Assembly (NCBI GenBank): GCA_964575955.1
Contig: CAZNTG010000011.1
Coordinates: 1 to 62,399 of the forward strand
DNA from: an uncultured Thermoproteaceae archaeon
Lineage (GTDB): Archaea; Thermoproteota; Thermoprotei; Thermoproteales; Thermocladiaceae
Length of the DNA: 62,399 nucleotides
Direction: 5' to 3'
The number at the start of each line of letters is the position of its first letter. Within the stretch, counting starts at the first letter, position 1. Both the position numbers and the translations under genes were made by a program. The notes under the pieces are model-generated. The model saw only the letters and a list, made by a program, of their open reading frames with translations. It had not been told where the DNA came from and did no database searches. Shown one piece after another: positions 2,090 through 37,142 of the stretch.

Positions 2090-2713
2090 TTATATATTTT
2101 GAGTACAGATTAATTTTATATCTTTCAAAGTGTTGATATTCTTAAAAACATCACCAAAAATCTTAACTATAGTATCAGCATCTATGAAGTGTGTATTATT
2201 TGAAAATTCTAATATAGCTCTTACAGGAACTTTATCCCAAACTTCTGGTCTATATTTTCTAAATATTTTGAGTATAGTCTCAATTCTATATATAGCTACT
2301 AGAGGTTCTAGAAAACCACTTCTCCATTTAGGTATTACACAATCATAATCATCTTCAAAATTTTCTATTAAGAATTTTATAAATTCTTTAGAGATGTTTA
2401 CTAGATCTACAGGTATTGTTAAGATGTGACTATACTTCCTTCTTAAGAATATTGCTGCAGTTACAATACCTGAGAGAGGATGATATTTATCAAATATGTC
2501 TCTAATAAGTACAACTTTATCTACTCTATCTATCACGTTGTAAATTTTATGATAATTATCTTTAACAACTACATACACTTTATCGAATATTTTTAGTATT
2601 GTGTTGATCTGTTTGTTTATTAAAAATTTGCCATATATCTTAACTAGACATTTATCAATTCCAAATCTACTACCTCTACCTCCAGCTAGTATTATAGCTC
2701 CAATTTTTGACAC
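2090..2713 (-). CDS. mobA: Molybdenum cofactor guanylyltransferase
   Basis: ILAGGRGSRFGIDK, PLSGI, EPLVAIY and FKNINT motifs. Confidence 0.85.
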   Translation of the reverse strand: MSKIGAIILAGGRGSRFGIDKCLVKIYGKFLINKQINTILKIFDKVYVVVKDNYHKIYNVIDRVDKVVLIRDIFDKYHPLSGIVTAAIFLRRKYSHILTIPVDLVNISKEFIKFLIENFEDDYDCVIPKWRSGFLEPLVAIYRIETILKIFRKYRPEVWDKVPVRAILEFSNNTHFIDADTIVKIFGDVFKNINTLKDIKLICTQNI

Positions 2714-2741
2714 AATGTTCCGATATTCATATTAGGTAGGT

Positions 2742-4163
2742 ATGTATTTAAATTACGTGTCTGCTGAAGTCATTAAATCTATAAAATTTGGAACAGATGG
2801 TGTTAGAGGTATTATTGATGAAGATTTTAATGAACTTATAGTTGCTTCAGTTGTTGAAGCTTCTATTAGATATTTCTCTAAGAAGAGAGATATTGGTAAA
2901 GTAATTGTTGGATATGATACACGTAGAAAAGCTGATCATTATGCTAAGATTGTTGTTAAGATTTGTAGAGATAGTGGAATTGAAGTTAGTCTAACTGATA
3001 GACCAACACCGACACCTGTAATATCTTGGGCTGTTAGATACTTTAAGTATGATCTAGCTTTTCAAATAACTGCAAGTCACAATCCACCACAGTATTGTGG
3101 TATCAAGGTTATAGATTGGAATGGAGCATCAATATCTGATGAAGATGCTGAAGGTATAATGAGTATATTACAGAGAGAGAGTGAGGATATATTTTCAAAA
3201 GTTAAAGTTTTAGAATATTCAATTCCTGACTTGTTGATAAATTTAAGAGATCCATATGTTGAGTATGTAGTATCAATTTCAGAAAAACCTAGGAGAAAGT
3301 TGAAAATTCTGTTCGACCCCATCTATGGAACAACTATAGGTTTCACAGATGAGATATTGAGAAGGTTAGGACATGAAGTACATACAATACATGATGTGTA
3401 TGATCAAAATTTTGGAGGATTATTACCATGTCCTGAAGGTGAAAACTTGAAGAGATTGAAAGATGTTACCATCAACGGTAAGTATGACCTAGCGATATCT
3501 CATGATGGAGATGGAGATCGTATTGGTGTTGTTACTGGTAGTGGAAAGATCTTAACAGGTAATGAAATACTTCTACTCTTCGTATATGAATATTCTAAAA
3601 CTGGTAAGATAAGGTCAGTAGCTAGAACAGTAGCAACTACAAGTCTTGTAGATAAGATATGTAATGAATATGGCATAAAGCTAGTAGAGACACCTGTAGG
3701 GATCAAATACATAGCTAAACTATTGATAAAGGGAGAGGTAGATATTGGAGGTGAGGAAAGTGGTGGTGTAGCTTTTAGATGGCATATACCTGAAAAAGAT
3801 GGAATATACACAGCTTCATTAATATCAAAAATACATTCAGATGTTGGTATTGATAATATAATAGATGAAATATATAGAAAATATGGAGAACCAAAATTTA
3901 AGAGATTTAAGATAGAAGTCAAAGAAAATCCAAAGATAGTATTTGAGAAGTATAGAGATAGAATTTTAGAAGAGATAAAGAATATTTGTATGAACATAAA
4001 CACTATTGACGGTATTAAATGCATGTTACAGGACTACTCCTGGATACTCATTAGACCTAGTGGTACAGAACCTGTAATTAGGATATACTGTGAAGAGTAT
4101 AGTCAAGATTCGTGCAGTAGTGTTTTAGAGAAGATAATTACAATTTTTCAAAATATAGGTTAA
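2742..4163 (+). CDS. Phosphoglucomutase/phosphomannomutase family protein (start may be GTG 2757)
   Basis: FGTDGVRG, TASHNP phosphoserine loop, DGDGDR metal loop, GEESG, RPSGTEP. Confidence 0.92.
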   Translation: MYLNYVSAEVIKSIKFGTDGVRGIIDEDFNELIVASVVEASIRYFSKKRDIGKVIVGYDTRRKADHYAKIVVKICRDSGIEVSLTDRPTPTPVISWAVRYFKYDLAFQITASHNPPQYCGIKVIDWNGASISDEDAEGIMSILQRESEDIFSKVKVLEYSIPDLLINLRDPYVEYVVSISEKPRRKLKILFDPIYGTTIGFTDEILRRLGHEVHTIHDVYDQNFGGLLPCPEGENLKRLKDVTINGKYDLAISHDGDGDRIGVVTGSGKILTGNEILLLFVYEYSKTGKIRSVARTVATTSLVDKICNEYGIKLVETPVGIKYIAKLLIKGEVDIGGEESGGVAFRWHIPEKDGIYTASLISKIHSDVGIDNIIDEIYRKYGEPKFKRFKIEVKENPKIVFEKYRDRILEEIKNICMNINTIDGIKCMLQDYSWILIRPSGTEPVIRIYCEEYSQDSCSSVLEKIITIFQNIG

Positions 4164-4200
4164 AAAATTTATATAATCTTACAAAATCTCGGCTAACTAT

Positions 4201-4494
4201 ATGGAACGTAATGTTAGTGAAAATAGGCTAGTTGTAAGATGTCCAAGATGTGGAAATCTTGTAAATATTTGTGAAATTTTAAGACAAGAATCACCAACAC
4301 ATACATACGTATTTTCTAGATATGTGATAGTTAGATGTCCAAGATGTGGTTATATATTTGAACCTATAACTGAACATTACATATATGAAGCGGAGAAGTA
4401 TATACCTAATAATAGGTCTAGTAATTCTAGCAATAATAGCAACAGCACTATACTACGAGATAGTAGGTATATCGAAGAAATCTCAAAAAACTAG
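4201..4494 (+). CDS. Small zinc-ribbon protein
   Basis: Two VRCPRCG repeats; the low-complexity tail overlaps the next gene. Confidence 0.6.
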   Translation: MERNVSENRLVVRCPRCGNLVNICEILRQESPTHTYVFSRYVIVRCPRCGYIFEPITEHYIYEAEKYIPNNRSSNSSNNSNSTILRDSRYIEEISKN

Positions 4495-5146
4495 CACTAT
4501 ATCAACAATCTATCATGGAGATGTTCTAGTAATTCTATATCCATATTTTAGATGGGAAGAATATTATGAAGTATTTAAGATATTGTCAGAAAATGGTTAT
4601 CATATAGATGTGCTATGTATGAAGAATGGTAGTAGAATAGTTGGGATTGATACGAGAGGAGGTTTACATTATGTTAACTGTAAATTTAATGTAGGTAGTG
4701 TAGATTTGTTTAAAATTGTTAGAAATCACAATGCTACAGTATTTATAGGCGGTCCAGGACTATACTGTATACTTGACATATATGCTTCTAAGATAGGTTT
4801 AGTAAAGCTAGATTATGGATGTTTAAAAATGTTAGGAAAATATGCTAACTTTGCTTTAAAATATCTAAACTATGGTGTTAAAGTTGCAAAAATAGCATAT
4901 AGTAGTGGAAAGATTGTTGCAGCTATATGTGTCGCACCTACAATACTGGCAATTGCAGGATTACTACATAATAGACCATTCACCTTGTATAGATGTGATG
5001 TTACTTTGAGACTTGTAAAATATTACAATTCTACAAATGTTCTAGATAGACCTGTTGTAATATCAGGAAGAGTAATTACAGGTAGAGGACCATCTGCAGC
5101 TAAGGATTTTGCAGAGAGTATTTTGAAAGTCTTGACAAGTCGCTAG
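4385..5146 (+). CDS. DJ-1/PfpI family protein with N-terminal membrane anchor or signal peptide
   Basis: FIGGPG, AAICVAP nucleophile elbow, ITGRGP; basic plus hydrophobic N-terminus. Confidence 0.75.
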   Translation: MKRRSIYLIIGLVILAIIATALYYEIVGISKKSQKTSTISTIYHGDVLVILYPYFRWEEYYEVFKILSENGYHIDVLCMKNGSRIVGIDTRGGLHYVNCKFNVGSVDLFKIVRNHNATVFIGGPGLYCILDIYASKIGLVKLDYGCLKMLGKYANFALKYLNYGVKVAKIAYSSGKIVAAICVAPTILAIAGLLHNRPFTLYRCDVTLRLVKYYNSTNVLDRPVVISGRVITGRGPSAAKDFAESILKVLTSR

Positions 5147-5184
5147 GAGAATAATTATTAACATGTTAAATAATACCGATATAT

Positions 5185-6693
5185 GTGGATAATCTAGACC
5201 TAAATGTCAAGTTGAAAAAGTATGAGAAGGCTATACATGTATTTAAGATAGCTCTAGATCTTGCACGTAGACTTAGAGATTTTAGATGTGAATTAGACTC
5301 ACTAATTCATGCAATATCTGGAGGTTTTGTAGAACCAGGACCATCAGGATCTTTAACTAGGGGAAAGTTTGAAATATTACCAACAGGTAGGAACTTCTAC
5401 ACAATTGATCCTAGAACAATACCAACACAGTCAGCATGGGAGATTGGTGTTAAATGTGGTAAAGCTCTACTTGAGAAATACTACTCTAAGTATGGTAGAT
5501 ATCCTGAATCCGTAGGATTCGTACTTTGGAGTATTGATGCATATAAGGCTGATGGTGAAGAACTTTCAGAAATACTATACCTCATAGGTGTTAGACCTGT
5601 ATGGGATTCTTATGGTAATGTTGTAGGTTTGGAACCAATACCTCTTGAAGAGCTTGGTAGACCTAGAATTGATGTTACAGTTAGGATTAGTGGAATTGTT
5701 AGAGATACATTACCAAACTATATATACTTGATAGATAGAGCTATAGAAATTGTATTAAACCTAGATGAGCCTATAGATATGAACTTCATAAAGAAGCACT
5801 ATCTAGAATTTTTAGAGAGGTTGAAAATGTTTAATATTAATGATGAAGAACTTGCAAAATGTAGAATATTTGCAGAACCTCCAGGAGCATATGGTGCAGG
5901 TGTTAATTATGCTGTTGAATCATCAGCATGGAGAAGTAGAGAAGATCTTGGTAAGGTATGGATATCATGGTCAGGATATGCATATACACGTAAAAGTTTT
6001 GGAAAACCTGCACATGAAGCATTAATACTAAACTTGGAAAAGGTAGATGCTGTTGTTAGAAATAATCCAACAGATGAACATGACATATTCTCATGTTGTT
6101 GCTATTTTGCATATCATGGAGGATTTTACACTGCAGTAAAAACTGTTAAACGTGGTGAAGTTGAAATATATCAAATAGATACATCAGACATATCTAAGAT
6201 AGATGTTAGAGATATAGAGGATGAAATTGAGAGAATTGTTAGAGCAAAACTACTAAACGATAAATGGATTGAAGAGATGAAGAAGCATGGATATTCAGGT
6301 GCTAGCGAATTTTCCAGAAAAATACTACATCTATATGGTTGGGCTTCAACTACAGGTAAGGTTAAAGATTGGATATTTAATGAAATTTCTAATAAATATG
6401 TAATTAATGATGAGATGAGAAGATGGTTTATTGAGAATAATAAGTATGCACTTGAAGAGATTACTAGAAGATTAATAGAAGCTGCTGAACGTGGAGTTTG
6501 GAATCCTGATCCTGAAATTTTAGATAAGTTGAAATCTATATATCTAGAAATTGAAGGTTATCTAGAAGATGAGGTTGTAGGCGAGGTTCAGGGAGGTTCT
6601 ATAGACATTGTATCTCCTGAAGATTATGATGATTATAAGAAGCTAGTATCTAAATCTGAAAAAGCTATGAATATTGTAGAGAAAACTCAATAG
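5185..6693 (+). CDS. cobN: Cobaltochelatase CobN/ChlH-family, C-terminal half only
   Basis: PGPSGSLTRG, LPTGRNFY, ELGRPRIDVTVRISGIVRD, GAYGAGV, WIEEMKKHGYSGA; 502 aa versus about 1200+ aa for full CobN. Confidence 0.85.
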   Translation: MDNLDLNVKLKKYEKAIHVFKIALDLARRLRDFRCELDSLIHAISGGFVEPGPSGSLTRGKFEILPTGRNFYTIDPRTIPTQSAWEIGVKCGKALLEKYYSKYGRYPESVGFVLWSIDAYKADGEELSEILYLIGVRPVWDSYGNVVGLEPIPLEELGRPRIDVTVRISGIVRDTLPNYIYLIDRAIEIVLNLDEPIDMNFIKKHYLEFLERLKMFNINDEELAKCRIFAEPPGAYGAGVNYAVESSAWRSREDLGKVWISWSGYAYTRKSFGKPAHEALILNLEKVDAVVRNNPTDEHDIFSCCCYFAYHGGFYTAVKTVKRGEVEIYQIDTSDISKIDVRDIEDEIERIVRAKLLNDKWIEEMKKHGYSGASEFSRKILHLYGWASTTGKVKDWIFNEISNKYVINDEMRRWFIENNKYALEEITRRLIEAAERGVWNPDPEILDKLKSIYLEIEGYLEDEVVGEVQGGSIDIVSPEDYDDYKKLVSKSEKAMNIVEKTQ

Positions 6694-6717
6694 GAGTAGT
6701 GACATAATAGTTAGCTA

Positions 6718-7701
6718 ATGAGTAGTAAAGAACATATAATTAAGAGAGGTCTTGAAGAGGTTATAAGAGATGAAGAGTTGAAAAGTGTCTTATCTAGAGA
6801 TAAGTTAGTATGTTATGTAGGTTATGAACCAACTGAGAGAATTCATGTAGGATGGCTAGTATGGATATTAAAGTTGAAAGATATACAGAAGGCAGGTATC
6901 GATATAAAGATTCTAGAAGCTACTATACATGCATGGATTAATGATAAGGGAAGTATTGAAGAATTAGAAGAGTATAAGAAGAATGTTAGAAAGATTATTG
7001 AGAAATTAGGAATATATGCAACATATATCGATAGTTCTGAAATAATTACAGATCCTGAATATGTTAGACTTCTAATACAGGCAGCAAAAAACACAACATT
7101 AGATAGAGTTAAGAGAGCCATAGTTGTACTTAAGAGAAGGATTGAAGAAGTTGAACAAGATTTTTCAAAAATACTATATCCACTAATGCAGGCTGTAGAT
7201 GCAATATATCTAAATGTTGACTTTGCCTTAGGTAGTATTGATCAAAAACCAGCATATACAATGTCTAGAGATATAGCAGTTAGATTAGGTAGAAAACCAG
7301 TAATAATATTGTGTACACCACTAATACCTGGTCTTAAAGCACCACTACTAGAAGATATTGATAATTTAGATGAAGTACTTGTATATGCTAAGATGTCATC
7401 TTCAAGACCTGATGATGCAATATTTCTAGACGATGATCCTGAAACAGTTGAAAGAAAGATAATGTCATGTCCATGTAAACCAAAAGAAACATTACTAAAT
7501 CCAATATTGAGCATTGTTAAACATGTAATACTACCATACTACGAGAAGATAACAATAGAGACAAAGACTAAGAATGTAGAAATAACGATAGATAATGCAG
7601 AAGAAATAGATAGATTATATAGAAGTGGAGAGCTAACTCCTGAAGAGTTGAAGAAGGCATGTAAAGACTACCTCATAGAGATGTTAGAAAAATTGAAATA
7701 G
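6718..7701 (+). CDS. tyrS: Tyrosyl-tRNA synthetase (divergent, possibly a paralog)
   Basis: YVGYEPT, HVGW (HIGH), YPLMQAVD, KMSSS. Confidence 0.8.
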   Translation: MSSKEHIIKRGLEEVIRDEELKSVLSRDKLVCYVGYEPTERIHVGWLVWILKLKDIQKAGIDIKILEATIHAWINDKGSIEELEEYKKNVRKIIEKLGIYATYIDSSEIITDPEYVRLLIQAAKNTTLDRVKRAIVVLKRRIEEVEQDFSKILYPLMQAVDAIYLNVDFALGSIDQKPAYTMSRDIAVRLGRKPVIILCTPLIPGLKAPLLEDIDNLDEVLVYAKMSSSRPDDAIFLDDDPETVERKIMSCPCKPKETLLNPILSIVKHVILPYYEKITIETKTKNVEITIDNAEEIDRLYRSGELTPEELKKACKDYLIEMLEKLK

Positions 7702-34096: not shown

Positions 34097-34904
34097 AGTA
34101 TGATAGTGTTCTCCTAAGTTTATATATTGGTATAGTATTTCTGAAATTTTCCAAAGTAGATTTATCCAACCTATGCTCAACATACTTCTCACCTATACCA
34201 AGATCTATCTCTACAACTCCCCAAGGATTTACAACAATACTCCTACCTGTGAATAGTTTTGAATATTGATTACATACAACTATGAAAATACCATTCTCAT
34301 GTGCTCTAGCTTGAGCTAGAAATCTCAAAGTATCTTCTTTTAAATCACCTCTAAACCATGCAGCTGGTATAAATACAACATCAGCACCATTCAACATGTA
34401 TACTCTAAAAAGTTCTGGAAATCTTATATCAAAACATATAGCACATGCAACATGCATATCACATATCTTAACTACAGGACTTGGAATAGAACCTCTACTA
34501 AATATTTTAGATTCTGAAAATCCATAAGCATCAAATAGATGAATCTTACGATACTTAAGTAATATATCTCCATTATTATCTATCAAAATTGCAGAATTAT
34601 ATATAGAATTTCCACATCTTTCAATAATTGTAGCTAGCACATGTATAGAATATTCACGACATATACTTCTCAACATATTTACAAAATCTCCATAAACATC
34701 TTCAGAAACATTATAAATAAGCTCGGGACTTTTAAACATATCTTCGCGAAAATACATAAAATACTCAGGCAGTATAACGATATCTGCCTTATTTAAAAAC
34801 CTTGATAAATACTTCTGGAGTTTATGAATATTTTCATATTTATTATCACAAGTCTCTATCTGAAGAATACCAACATGCATAGTTGAGAAATTGTAGATCA
34901 ACAT
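34080..34904 (-). CDS. Carbon-nitrogen hydrolase (Nit family)
   Basis: LPEY, YRKIHLFD, ICFDIRFPE triad motifs. Confidence 0.9.
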   Translation of the reverse strand: MLIYNFSTMHVGILQIETCDNKYENIHKLQKYLSRFLNKADIVILPEYFMYFREDMFKSPELIYNVSEDVYGDFVNMLRSICREYSIHVLATIIERCGNSIYNSAILIDNNGDILLKYRKIHLFDAYGFSESKIFSRGSIPSPVVKICDMHVACAICFDIRFPELFRVYMLNGADVVFIPAAWFRGDLKEDTLRFLAQARAHENGIFIVVCNQYSKLFTGRSIVVNPWGVVEIDLGIGEKYVEHRLDKSTLENFRNTIPIYKLRRTLSYSKIFL

Positions 34905-34930: not shown

Positions 34931-34987
34931 ATGAATGATGAGAGGTAGAAGGACGGAAAAATGAAGAAGGATTTGAACGCTGAGTAC
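34931..34987 (+). ncRNA. Box C/D guide sRNA, predicted tRNA Cm56 guide
   Basis: C ATGATGA 34935-41, D' CGGA 34954-57, C' ATGAAGA 34961-67, D guide AGGATTTGAACG (antisense to GUUCAAAUCC), D CTGA 34980-83. Confidence 0.85.
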
Positions 34988-35044
34988 TTCATAAGATATG
35001 TAAGTTGTGTAGAAATGAATTAATATAGATGTGCCTCTATACTG

Positions 35045-35890
35045 ATGCTGTACATGAACTCTACATCTATCTCATTCAAAGATTTTATAAGATATTTCAA
35101 AAACTCTAAATCATATAAATCACTATATAATGGTTATGAGGTTTTAAGAGAGATGTTTACTGAGAATTGTTATAGATTTATATCATTTACAGAGCATCTA
35201 GTTATTGAAGACCTACCATACTACACGTTATTAAAACTTGTTGATCATAATCTAGTTAATGCATTTATGACCTACTCTAGAGTTTTAGATATTGAACTTT
35301 GTAGAATATTTGATATAGATTTTGAAGATTATGATAAACTTTACGATACTTTAAGAGAAGTTATGTTAAGTTTTGTTAAAGATATTTCTAATACGTGTCT
35401 CAGATCTCCTTCAGATCTCTTAAAATGTTTCTTCAAGTTCTTAGGTAGACTTATCAATAAGAAATCATTGTTCATTAATGCTTCTTCAAAAGATGTTGAA
35501 ATATTTATTCCTGATGTTGTACATACGTTATTTGCTAAAGTTTTATTAGATATTGATGAGAGTTTTAATAATGCTCTAGATATTTTGAATGATGAGAGAA
35601 AGATTTGTGATATAATGTTTGAATATGATAAGATTGGTGCAGTATTTCTATATGGTAGTCTTCCAAAACATCATGTTCAGTGGTGGTCTGCTGTTAGAGA
35701 TGGTCTTGACTATGCTATTCAGATAACTCCAATATTTGAGTATGATGGTAGTTTAAGTGGTGCTAGAATTGAAGAGTCTATTACATGGAATCAGTTGAGA
35801 CCTAATGGTAGAGGTGTGTCTATTGTTGGTGATCCTGTAATTATATTTCCGATATTGGTAAATGCTGTGTTAGAAGATTTGAATATTTAA
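35045..35890 (+). CDS. Deoxyhypusine synthase-like protein, catalytic Lys absent
   Basis: KHHVQWW..RDGLDYAIQIT..EYDGSLSGAR...GD..IIFPIL; SWGK replaced by TWNQ. Confidence 0.8.
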   Translation: MLYMNSTSISFKDFIRYFKNSKSYKSLYNGYEVLREMFTENCYRFISFTEHLVIEDLPYYTLLKLVDHNLVNAFMTYSRVLDIELCRIFDIDFEDYDKLYDTLREVMLSFVKDISNTCLRSPSDLLKCFFKFLGRLINKKSLFINASSKDVEIFIPDVVHTLFAKVLLDIDESFNNALDILNDERKICDIMFEYDKIGAVFLYGSLPKHHVQWWSAVRDGLDYAIQITPIFEYDGSLSGARIEESITWNQLRPNGRGVSIVGDPVIIFPILVNAVLEDLNI

Positions 35891-35904
35891 TTAAACATTC
35901 TTAC

Positions 35905-36072
35905 TTACCTATAGCTTGCTAAGTCTATTTGAAGTCCACATTTTGGACATTGAACTACCGTGGGTGCGCATCCATATATTGAGGCTAGCATGCATGTTAA
36001 GCATCCTGATTCTGGAAGTACTACTCTAAATTTTGTTCCACATCTTGGACAGGTTACTGTTACTACTGACAT
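35905..36072 (-). CDS. 55-aa Cys-rich zinc-ribbon protein (not in ORF track)
   Basis: MSVVTVTCPRCGTKFRVVLPESGCLTCMLASIYGCAPTVVQCPKCGLQIDLASYR*; fills the intergenic gap. Confidence 0.75.
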   Translation of the reverse strand: MSVVTVTCPRCGTKFRVVLPESGCLTCMLASIYGCAPTVVQCPKCGLQIDLASYR

Positions 36073-36158
36073 ACGTATAGTAGTTCTATTATGTTTAAGA
36101 TCTTTTTCAAAACTCTTTTAGGTAAGTCTTAATTATATAGTTTAGATATATCTAAATC

Positions 36159-37031
36159 TTAATATTTCTGTGTTCTTATTGCTATTATCATAGATATTAG
36201 TATTAGTATTGCTCCAAGAATTTGTAGAGGTTTCATAATTTCACCAAGCATTAACCATGCAAATATTGCTGCAAATGCTGGCTCTAATAAGTATATCAAT
36301 GCTGCAACTTCAGGATATACAAAACGTTGTCCATATACCTGTAGTGAAAATGCACCTACTGTACATACAGTTCCAAGATATGTTAATCCTAGTATTGTAT
36401 CTACTGTTAAGTTTATTGTATATCTATTGAATAGTGTTGAAATTATAAATAATGATGCTGGTATCATTTCAAAAAATGTAAAACATAGTGGATCAACATC
36501 ACTAAACTTAGATACTAGTATGACCTGTGCTGCCCATGCTACAGCTCCTAGAAGTACTAGAAAATCTCCAAGATTGAAACCTCCCGTTGGTAATGTTAGT
36601 AGGTATAGTCCAAGTATGGCTAGAAGTAGTTCAATTCCTAGAAATATGCTATATCTCCTCTCTATCAATGCGACATATATATGTACAAACACTACGTTAA
36701 GCTCGGTTATAAATGCTGAATTTGAAGCTGTTGTAAGACCTGTACCCCAACCTTGAAGCCATAGTCCTAGAGCATATGCTATACCTGTAACTAGACCACC
36801 AAATATTTCTCTTCTAAATTTTTCAACACTCTTCTTAAAAACTCTATAAACTACATATGGTAGAAGACAGGTTATTGCTATCATACTCCTAATCCAAGTA
36901 TATGAAAAACTTCCAATATTACATACAACTATCTTAATTATTGGAAATGTAGAACCCCAAAATAGTGTTGCAAGAAGAAGCGATATGTATCCTCTAATAA
37001 CTCTACTCTTACTAATCTCAACATTACTCAT
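36159..37031 (-). CDS. DMT/EamA family transporter
   Basis: FWGSTF, TASNSAFI, GDFLVL, LLEPAFA; about 10 TM. Confidence 0.88.
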   Translation of the reverse strand: MSNVEISKSRVIRGYISLLLATLFWGSTFPIIKIVVCNIGSFSYTWIRSMIAITCLLPYVVYRVFKKSVEKFRREIFGGLVTGIAYALGLWLQGWGTGLTTASNSAFITELNVVFVHIYVALIERRYSIFLGIELLLAILGLYLLTLPTGGFNLGDFLVLLGAVAWAAQVILVSKFSDVDPLCFTFFEMIPASLFIISTLFNRYTINLTVDTILGLTYLGTVCTVGAFSLQVYGQRFVYPEVAALIYLLEPAFAAIFAWLMLGEIMKPLQILGAILILISMIIAIRTQKY

Positions 37032-37086
37032 TTGAGAGATAGTATTAGAAGACTAGACTAAACTTAAAGATGATCATGCTGTATGT

Positions 37087-37142
37087 AGATTCAGCTGGTC
37101 TAGTACTCATCACTACTCTGACCGTGACCTCTCATCACCTCT
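37087..37142 (-). ncRNA. Box C/D guide sRNA overlapping the ubiX 3' end
   Basis: Minus strand: C GTGATGA (37138-32), guide GAGGTCACGGT, D' CAGA, C' GTGATGA (37113-07), guide GTACTAGACCAG, D CTGA (37094-91). Confidence 0.85.

Follow-up and report, generated by a model that had tools for sequence, protein, structure and literature searches.

A DHS paralog without the catalytic lysine

The window, a 62,399-nucleotide stretch of the genome of an uncultured Thermoproteaceae archaeon (G000), carries a forward-strand gene for a 281-residue protein (P0001) of the deoxyhypusine synthase (DHS) family, here termed a C-type subunit. The features of this locus, numbered from the first base of the window, are as follows.

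35020 to 35027, forward strand: TATA-like box TTAATATA, following a purine-rich run, read from the sequence
35045 to 35890, forward strand: C-type DHS subunit gene (P0001, 281 aa), an open reading frame without stops and with a DS-domain match
35183 to 35200, forward strand: SFTEHL in place of SFT[AG]NL on the NAD face (sequence comparison)
35270 to 35281, forward strand: TYSR in place of TT[AG]G on the NAD face (sequence comparison)
35651 to 35683, forward strand: YGSLPKHHVQW, with His288 retained and GGG gone (sequence comparison, predicted structure)
35702 to 35722, forward strand: GLDYAIQ, with a new invariant Gln226 (sequence comparison)
35744 to 35767, forward strand: DGSLSGAR, the polyamine/NAD loop 313-320, retained in P0001 and lost in all N-type partners
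35774 to 35794, forward strand: ESITWNQ, with Glu323 and Trp327 retained, Ala324 replaced by Ser, and Lys329 replaced by Gln250 (alignment)

P0001 matches the Pfam DS domain (PF01916) with an E value of 1.5e-38 (133.2 bits, cutoff 27) and falls below every NCBIfam dhys cutoff (TIGR00321 / PRK01221: 112.5 versus 304.25 bits and, at best, 157.7 versus 350 bits). Its nearest solved sequence is an archaeal DHS, 8PUT (E = 1.7e-38), which is also the best Foldseek match (E = 1.9e-16, TM = 0.76) of a confident AlphaFold model (pLDDT 88.1, pTM 0.87); TM scores to DHS structures range from 0.76 to 0.82, and a search of the ESM Atlas returned ordinary DHS clusters only. Compared with the genome, the gene shows no compositional mark of a recent transfer (GC3 of 0.199, genome median 0.195). 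Crenarchaeal promoters have a characteristic spacing, and on that basis the position of TTAATATA suggests that the true start of the gene may be the ATG at 35054 and would fit a predicted near-leaderless transcript beginning near that codon. A promoter scan with a bacterial model, applied here to an archaeal host, found 6 sites where 8.7 were expected. No transcript of the reading frame was seen in the single RNA run, which covers only 35892 to 36042, outside the gene. Convergent on the C-type gene is a small ORF (35905 to 36072, reverse strand, 55 aa) with two CxxC zinc-ribbon-like motifs, for which all Pfam matches are below cutoff and similar DNA exists in another genome (G013).

The intact frame and the C-terminal hallmarks of DHS that the first-pass annotation had read from the sequence (KHH, GLDYA, DGSLSGAR) are borne out, and so are the departures it had listed. 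When P0001 is aligned with 8PUT (EAISWNK) and human DHS (EAVSWGK), ESITWNQ places a Gln at the position of the catalytic Lys329; YGS stands where GGG is expected, SFTEHL and TYSR are present as described, and directly beyond TYSR the RIGN loop and the Tyr176 helix are deleted. The Gln codon (CAG, 35792 to 35794) is not an assembly error, because a contig from a run of a second study (X2), which covers 35460 to 35840 with a single synonymous difference, leaves it unchanged, and because the orthologs also encode Gln, as CAG or CAA.

All five full-length C-types in our survey read ES[IV]TWxQL, with Gln at the Lys329 position in 5/5, and share nine further invariant changes, several of them near the Lys329 pocket. 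The Glu of SFTEHL is invariant in all five and occurs in none of 78 canonical sequences. Gln226 occupies the position of Tyr305, which is Tyr in 75 of the 78, and Gln212 (human position 291), likewise new and invariant in C-types, lies one helical turn ahead of the lost Gln295. Position 295, an eIF5A-loop contact, is Gln in 78/78 canonical sequences and Ala, Gly, or Ser in all C-types. The fixed Gln 329, Ser 324, Gln 305, and Gln 291 look like a coordinated rebuilding of the lysine pocket. An unrelated DHS-family protein (P0228, 341 aa) reads EARSWMQ at the Lys329 position and has both faces otherwise intact; this single sequence is possibly an error or possibly a one-chain lysine-free DHS.

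A second DHS gene and no canonical DHS in the host assembly

A family search of the host genome (94.69% complete, 15 contigs) yielded two DHS matches only, the window gene over profile positions 99 to 287 and a gene elsewhere in the genome over positions 1 to 224. The latter encodes the putative partner, and its location is given here with that of the presumptive substrate gene.

Contig C6, 386290 to 387243 (L001:1441-2394), outside the window: N-type partner gene (P0031), a DHS-family match
Contig C6, 598187 to 598573 (L003), outside the window: aIF5A gene

The canonical dys gene that the first-pass annotation looked to is missing from this assembly; the other DHS is the N-type P0031, which also lacks the lysine. 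Six-frame searches of G000 with a canonical profile, with a profile of the C terminus alone, and for the pattern E[AS][ILV][ST]WxK found no further DHS, and the C-terminal profile found no separate small gene for the missing loop. P0031 retains SFPADI, TTAG, DHD, RIGN, DGAFG, GGG, and SDAT and is without KHH, DGSLSGA, and the entire EAxxWxK segment. Its named relatives are Vulcanisaeta, Caldivirga, and Thermocladium proteins, which points to a Thermoproteales host. Its gene is flanked by a methyltransferase gene on one side and a gene for a family 4 glycosyltransferase on the other, which is where most relatives have canonical dys. A DS match is present in each of the 30 other genomes of the family; 25 single full-length genes were aligned (five genes broken into pieces at one locus were left out), and the catalytic lysine is invariant in these 25. 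Identity to family relatives is 26 to 31% for the C-type and 41 to 55% for the N-type. The methyltransferase gene is conserved directly upstream of dys at three loci (L001, L014, L037) and in most class relatives, across many families, and may be connected with aIF5A.

We looked for a compensating lysine at every alignment column of the two subunits, and none stands at any column able to replace position 329. The only lysine common to both subunits is the ordinary KHH lysine, and the basic residue two positions after the C-type Gln is Arg in 2/5 C-types and occurs in canonical enzymes too.

Complementary active-site halves

DHS active sites are formed between two protomers, and in trypanosomatids these are two paralogs. 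The S3 Table of PMC7581365, on human and trypanosomatid DHS, assigns each residue of the site to protomer A1 (the NAD side), given in trypanosomatids by DHSp, or A2, given there by DHSc; the A2 residues are His288, Asp313-Ser317, Glu323, Trp327, and Lys329. We mapped 28 A1 and 13 A2 positions by motif onto 78 canonical archaeal sequences. For a few of them the human numbering follows known human motifs; the rest follows the table and the alignment.

P0001 retains 9/28 NAD-side and 9/13 catalytic-side positions, and the reading that it cannot work alone stands. P0031 is close to its mirror image, with 24/28 and 3/13. Across the C-types (n = 5), 8 to 12 NAD-side and 8 to 10 catalytic-side positions are kept; across the N-types (n = 4), 24 to 28 and 2 to 5. 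Canonical sequences (n = 78) have medians of 28/28 and 13/13, values that are high by construction since these sequences define the allowed set. Lys329 is deleted or unalignable in all four N-types, and Tyr176 is present in all four. The N-type of a third host (G717) has 28/28 NAD-side residues and an intact KHH and looks like an early stage of partner remodeling.

By these retained residues, P0001 corresponds to the DHSc-like half of the protomer table and P0031 to the DHSp-like one. As in DHSc, P0001 has kept His288, the 313-317 loop, Glu323, and Trp327 while its NAD side is degenerate, but the catalytic lysine of DHSc is absent (Gln250). Absence of the lysine is a DHSp trait that P0001 shares; the remainder of the DHSp profile (NAD side retained; Asp316, Glu323, and Trp327 lost) is reversed in P0001 and found in P0031. 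P0001 does not hold both active-site faces in one chain, as a canonical enzyme does. The likeness to the trypanosomatid pair drawn in the first-pass annotation thus stands for the two-paralog arrangement and fails for the role, the window protein being DHSc-like rather than DHSp-like. Judged by their residues, P0001 and P0031 would together make up one complete site but for the lysine.

Distribution and pairing across archaea

C-types were found as P0001, P0003 (54% identity), P0004/P0005 (45%), P0158 (38%), P0159 (33%), and a fragment, P0295. P0158 lies on contig L033 of an uncultured Thermofilaceae genome (G065, 94% complete) that has a C-type and N-type pair and no canonical DHS. In G717 (90% complete), which belongs to another class of the phylum, probably Sulfolobales in the broad sense, an N-type is the sole DHS. 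A metagenome contig (L036) bearing a C-type gene beside tRNA-His is 99 to 100% identical to G717 DNA over 1-2106, 2454-4341, and 4287-6887 (∼6.6 of 8.5 kb), and this C-type gene is missing from the fragmented G717 assembly. In the sister of G717 (G718, 99% complete), canonical dys occupies the locus where G717 has its N-type. In G718, a LAGLIDADG-like ORF (L117:845-1574) lies directly downstream of tRNA-His, where L036 has the C-type. Pairing is thus direct in two genomes (G000 and G065) and inferred in one species (G717); the tree suggests that P0003 pairs with P0032.

C-types are rare: judged by score on top matches, they occur in 2/120 genomes of the class, 1/401 sampled genomes of the phylum (G000 itself), and 0/325 genomes in the order of G717. 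The lysine is present in 313 of 329 distinct full-length DHS-like sequences; the others are 7 C-type entries, 7 N-type entries, and 2 unrelated exceptions. No genome with both a C-type and canonical dys was found in the class, the phylum sample, or the order of G717. The ancestral dys locus is held by an N-type in all three hosts, and the single ancestral gene is retained in the sister species G008, G064, and G718. These counts come from three incomplete host genomes (90 to 95%) and from a small sample of five C-type lineages and three pairings.

There is no conserved operon partner: the neighbors of the C-type gene differ in the window, L033, and L036, and C- and N-type genes are unlinked. 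Pattern searches of viral contigs gave 56 matches, none of them a relative. In genomes of two families (f4 and f5; L071-L075 and L077-L082), canonical dys is accompanied by a second paralog of the DHS family that has RFYD for RIGN and DF[IV]Q for KHH; we rejected these genes as C-types because they retain WGK, and they are probably a polyamine-synthesis paralog. In another protein (P0163, 441 aa), canonical DHS is fused behind a decarboxylase domain that we take to be SpeD-like from its motif.

Evolutionary history and selection

The five C-types form one clade (100/100) in both of our trees, the second of which has 35 rows (32 picked from the first 86 plus 3 added), and the N-types nest with their own hosts' canonical genes in three places in both. 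A single N-type clade is rejected (p-AU = 0.0015), as is an origin of the C-types by local duplication (p-AU = 3.5e-6 for G065 and 1.3e-8 for G000), with the provisos that the groups were defined once the first tree was already known and that C-type branches are long enough for attraction not to be wholly excluded. Common descent of the C-types is further supported by ten invariant residues that are rare in canonical sequences and by a shared loop deletion. The tree topology indicates that N-type partners arose three times independently from the hosts' own dys, and the same loop is lost in each of the three origins.

The C-type tree conflicts with host taxonomy, the G000 gene being nearer to that of the G717 species (another class) than to that of G065 (same class). 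In the window, the gene lies with a zinc-ribbon ORF and an EamA transporter gene in a variable slot (34984 to 37090) between a nitrilase-family gene and ubiX; in genus relatives the same slot holds a PLD-like gene (G010), a weak Csx1-like gene and two others (G009), or the start of an ATPase-like ORF (G008). Together, the conflict and the variable slot favor horizontal transfer of the C-type. The transfers are old, because C-type codon composition is adapted to each host (GC3 of 0.20, 0.31, and 0.65). Within the nitrilase-family gene, 34404 to 34443 includes 30 to 40 bases in common with very deep, unrelated contigs of two runs (X1 and X2), perhaps a spacer or a chance shared word.

The survey of lysine-less homologs and substitution rates that the first-pass annotation had proposed finds a gene that is neither unique nor evolving neutrally. 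Synonymous sites among the five C-types are saturated (pS 0.78 to 0.96), and pN is 0.22 to 0.25 on the catalytic face versus 0.39 to 0.51 elsewhere. Frames are intact at 33 to 55% identity, with 49 invariant columns concentrated on one face. These substitution patterns indicate that C-type genes are under purifying selection. In comparisons of N-types with their canonical sisters, the pattern is reversed in G000 and G065, where pN is 0.25 and 0.32 in the NAD part and 0.44 and 0.43 in the C-terminal part; for G717 the aligned parts are similar (0.15 and 0.18) apart from the deletion.

Substrate, proposed chemistry, and alternatives

Neither the substrate nor its supply appears altered. The aIF5A lysine loop ([TP]GKHG) is intact in the three hosts and matches that of relatives around the lysine, and 12/12 genomes tested have genes for spermidine synthase and for SpeD-family and arginase-family proteins, with the same content as in relatives that have canonical DHS. 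In the known enzyme, the lysine holds the aminobutyl unit while diaminopropane exits and the lysine of IF5A comes into the same tunnel (PMC7226451, PMC9117371, PMC10042821). With Gln in place of Lys329 an enzyme-imine is impossible. Spermidine and eIF5A Lys50 bind in a mutually exclusive way at overlapping positions, so dehydrospermidine is unlikely to be attacked directly while still intact, and the scheme has to include hydrolysis as an assumed step. There is a precedent in bacterial homospermidine synthase, described as a lysine-free NAD/His/Trp aminobutyl transfer in which 4-aminobutanal is held noncovalently (PMC4725965).

We infer the binding, stoichiometry, substrate, and chemistry of the pair on the basis of residue complementarity, the absence of canonical DHS from the assemblies, selection, tree shape, and synteny. 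That C-type and N-type form an obligate heteromer is very probable. The fuller statement, a heteromer most likely of 2+2 with one composite site per dimer that aminobutylates aIF5A without an enzyme-lysine intermediate, we regard as evenly balanced between right and wrong. The N-type would give the NAD pocket, Asp238, the RIGN loop, and a Tyr176-bearing surface to hold the loop of aIF5A; the C-type would give His288, the 313-317 loop, Glu323, and Trp327; and one of the two interface sites per dimer would work. Spermidine would be oxidized with NAD and the imine hydrolyzed with release of diaminopropane; 4-aminobutanal would be kept noncovalently over Trp327 by the new Gln and Ser residues; and the aIF5A lysine would form a Schiff base directly, to be reduced by NADH as in the bacterial enzyme. 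Historically, the C-type gene would have arrived by horizontal transfer, after which the host catalytic face would be dispensable and lost, a loss that locks the pair in. The broader scenario, in which a transferred lysine-free half-subunit repeatedly captured an essential dys in unrelated hyperthermophilic archaea, turned the resident into a cofactor-supplying partner, and yielded a heterotetramer that aminobutylates aIF5A without the covalent enzyme-imine considered indispensable in this family, is more tentative and falls somewhat short of an even chance. Several observations weigh against aminobutylation of aIF5A by the pair. Human K329A is inactive, with no hypusination and almost no spermidine dehydrogenation (PMC10042821), and Entamoeba DHS requires its lysine (PMC7909649). 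Gln295 is lost in all C-types, so aIF5A could be no longer the acceptor; the genes are unlinked, the C-types share no neighbors, and one RNA run beside the gene showed no transcript of it; and the hosts are incomplete genomes from few lineages with long C-type branches.

The same heteromer and composite site might instead perform another reaction. The donor could be putrescine, agmatine, or a longer polyamine, oxidized at a terminal amine with loss of ammonia; aIF5A could receive another group; or the product could be a small molecule, for instance homospermidine. The invariant changes at 291, 305, and 329 (all to Gln), at 324 (to Ser), and at 295 (loss of Gln) do remodel both donor and acceptor sides. 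A new product would account for the retention of a transferred gene that displaced the resident catalytic face three times, and some paralogs in the DHS family make other products (NCBIfam PRK00770 and PRK02492; PMC5178350). This reading has to contend, however, with hosts that have no other DHS left to modify aIF5A, an unchanged lysine loop, an N-type that keeps Tyr176, which human DHS requires for the eIF5A loop (PMC10042821), polyamine genes like those of canonical-DHS relatives, and no co-inherited neighbor genes, and we consider it unlikely though deserving of weight. We think it improbable that the pair is a dead complex that binds aIF5A, NAD, and polyamine as a chaperone, sensor, or store, with aIF5A unmodified or modified by an unrelated enzyme. 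Such a complex would suit the lack of a replacement lysine in either subunit, and human K329A still binds NAD, spermidine, and eIF5A (PMC10042821), but strict His288, Glu323, and Trp327 and a Gln fixed in two codons and five lineages over saturated synonymous divergence exceed what binding needs. G000 is moreover not depleted in polyproline (90 PPP, 3.5× expected, a figure that has no matched control), and the archaeal deoxyhypusine pathway is thought essential (PMC5178350).

The first-pass annotation had taken P0001 for a regulatory or scaffold subunit of a catalytic DHS, which does not agree with the lack of any lysine-bearing DHS in G000, G065, and G717. A dead paralog could still activate a lysine-bearing enzyme missing from the assemblies, given that these are 90 to 95% complete, that one lacks a gene known from its own species, and that dead activating paralogs are known (PMC3663545); however, the third gene would have to be absent from three independent assemblies in which the ancestral locus is N-type, C-type and canonical dys occur together in no genome found, and P0001 has retained the catalytic face and lost the one an activator provides, so we rate this very improbable. 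Independent decay of two DHS copies with no joint function is scarcely credible: the very rare distribution, unlinked genes, and lack of an ORF transcript in a run restricted to 35892 to 36042 would be expected of it, but intact frames at such low identity, invariant columns gathered on one face, pN far under saturated pS, and a mirror-image loss three times over are not. On this point the earlier preference for function rather than decay is upheld, with Gln in all orthologs and purifying selection.

Comparison with known systems

We propose that the window gene is the catalytic-face half of a lysine-free complementary pair that, from the sequences compared, recurs in three archaeal lineages and whose chemistry is possibly new. 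The pair extends the DHSc/DHSp arrangement, which the literature searched describes only for trypanosomatids and Entamoeba, to archaea; a report of a split or lysine-free archaeal DHS was not found in the open-access literature, although supplementary alignments of PMC5178350 (Fig. S8) and PMC3663545 could list archaeal paralogs. A lysine-free form that occurs naturally and is under selection would mean that this fold can make deoxyhypusine in another way, that aIF5A can receive a new modification, or that some archaea live without deoxyhypusine. The system likewise offers, three times over, a natural example of a homomer becoming an obligate heteromer, each partner having lost the same loop independently.

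Canonical archaeal DHS (TIGR00321, PRK01221; PDB 8PUT, 7CMC) has its fold, C-terminal motifs, and ancestry in common with the C-type but is a homotetramer from one gene with Lys329, whereas here there are two genes and no Lys329. A eukaryote-like tandem DHS fusion (P0248, 608 aa) has EAISWGK without RIGN in domain 1 and RIGN and DGSLGD without the SWGK segment in domain 2, which gives it the look of two complementary halves joined in a single chain that retains the lysine. Bacterial homospermidine synthase, as described in PMC4725965, has bound NAD, a His, an acidic triad, a Trp, and no enzyme lysine; the likeness is to the proposed mechanism only, since its fold is unrelated, its site lies within one subunit, and its acceptor is a small molecule. 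Trypanosomatid DHSc/DHSp (PMC3663545; PDB 6DFT) and Entamoeba EhDHS1/EhDHS2 (PMC7909649) are likewise reported as two paralogs with complementary interface halves, and the DHSc/DHSp division is as here, one paralog giving the NAD side and the other His288, Asp313-316, Glu323, and Trp327, with one working and one dead site per dimer. In those accounts the catalytic subunit retains Lys329, whereas the archaeal pair has Gln there and no subunit with the lysine. The archaeal pair also loses more, the RIGN loop in one subunit and the 313-329 loop in the other, so that its dead site probably binds no NAD. Finally, DHSc/DHSp is eukaryotic, whereas the archaeal pair combines one catalytic-face clade with partners recruited three times from resident dys.
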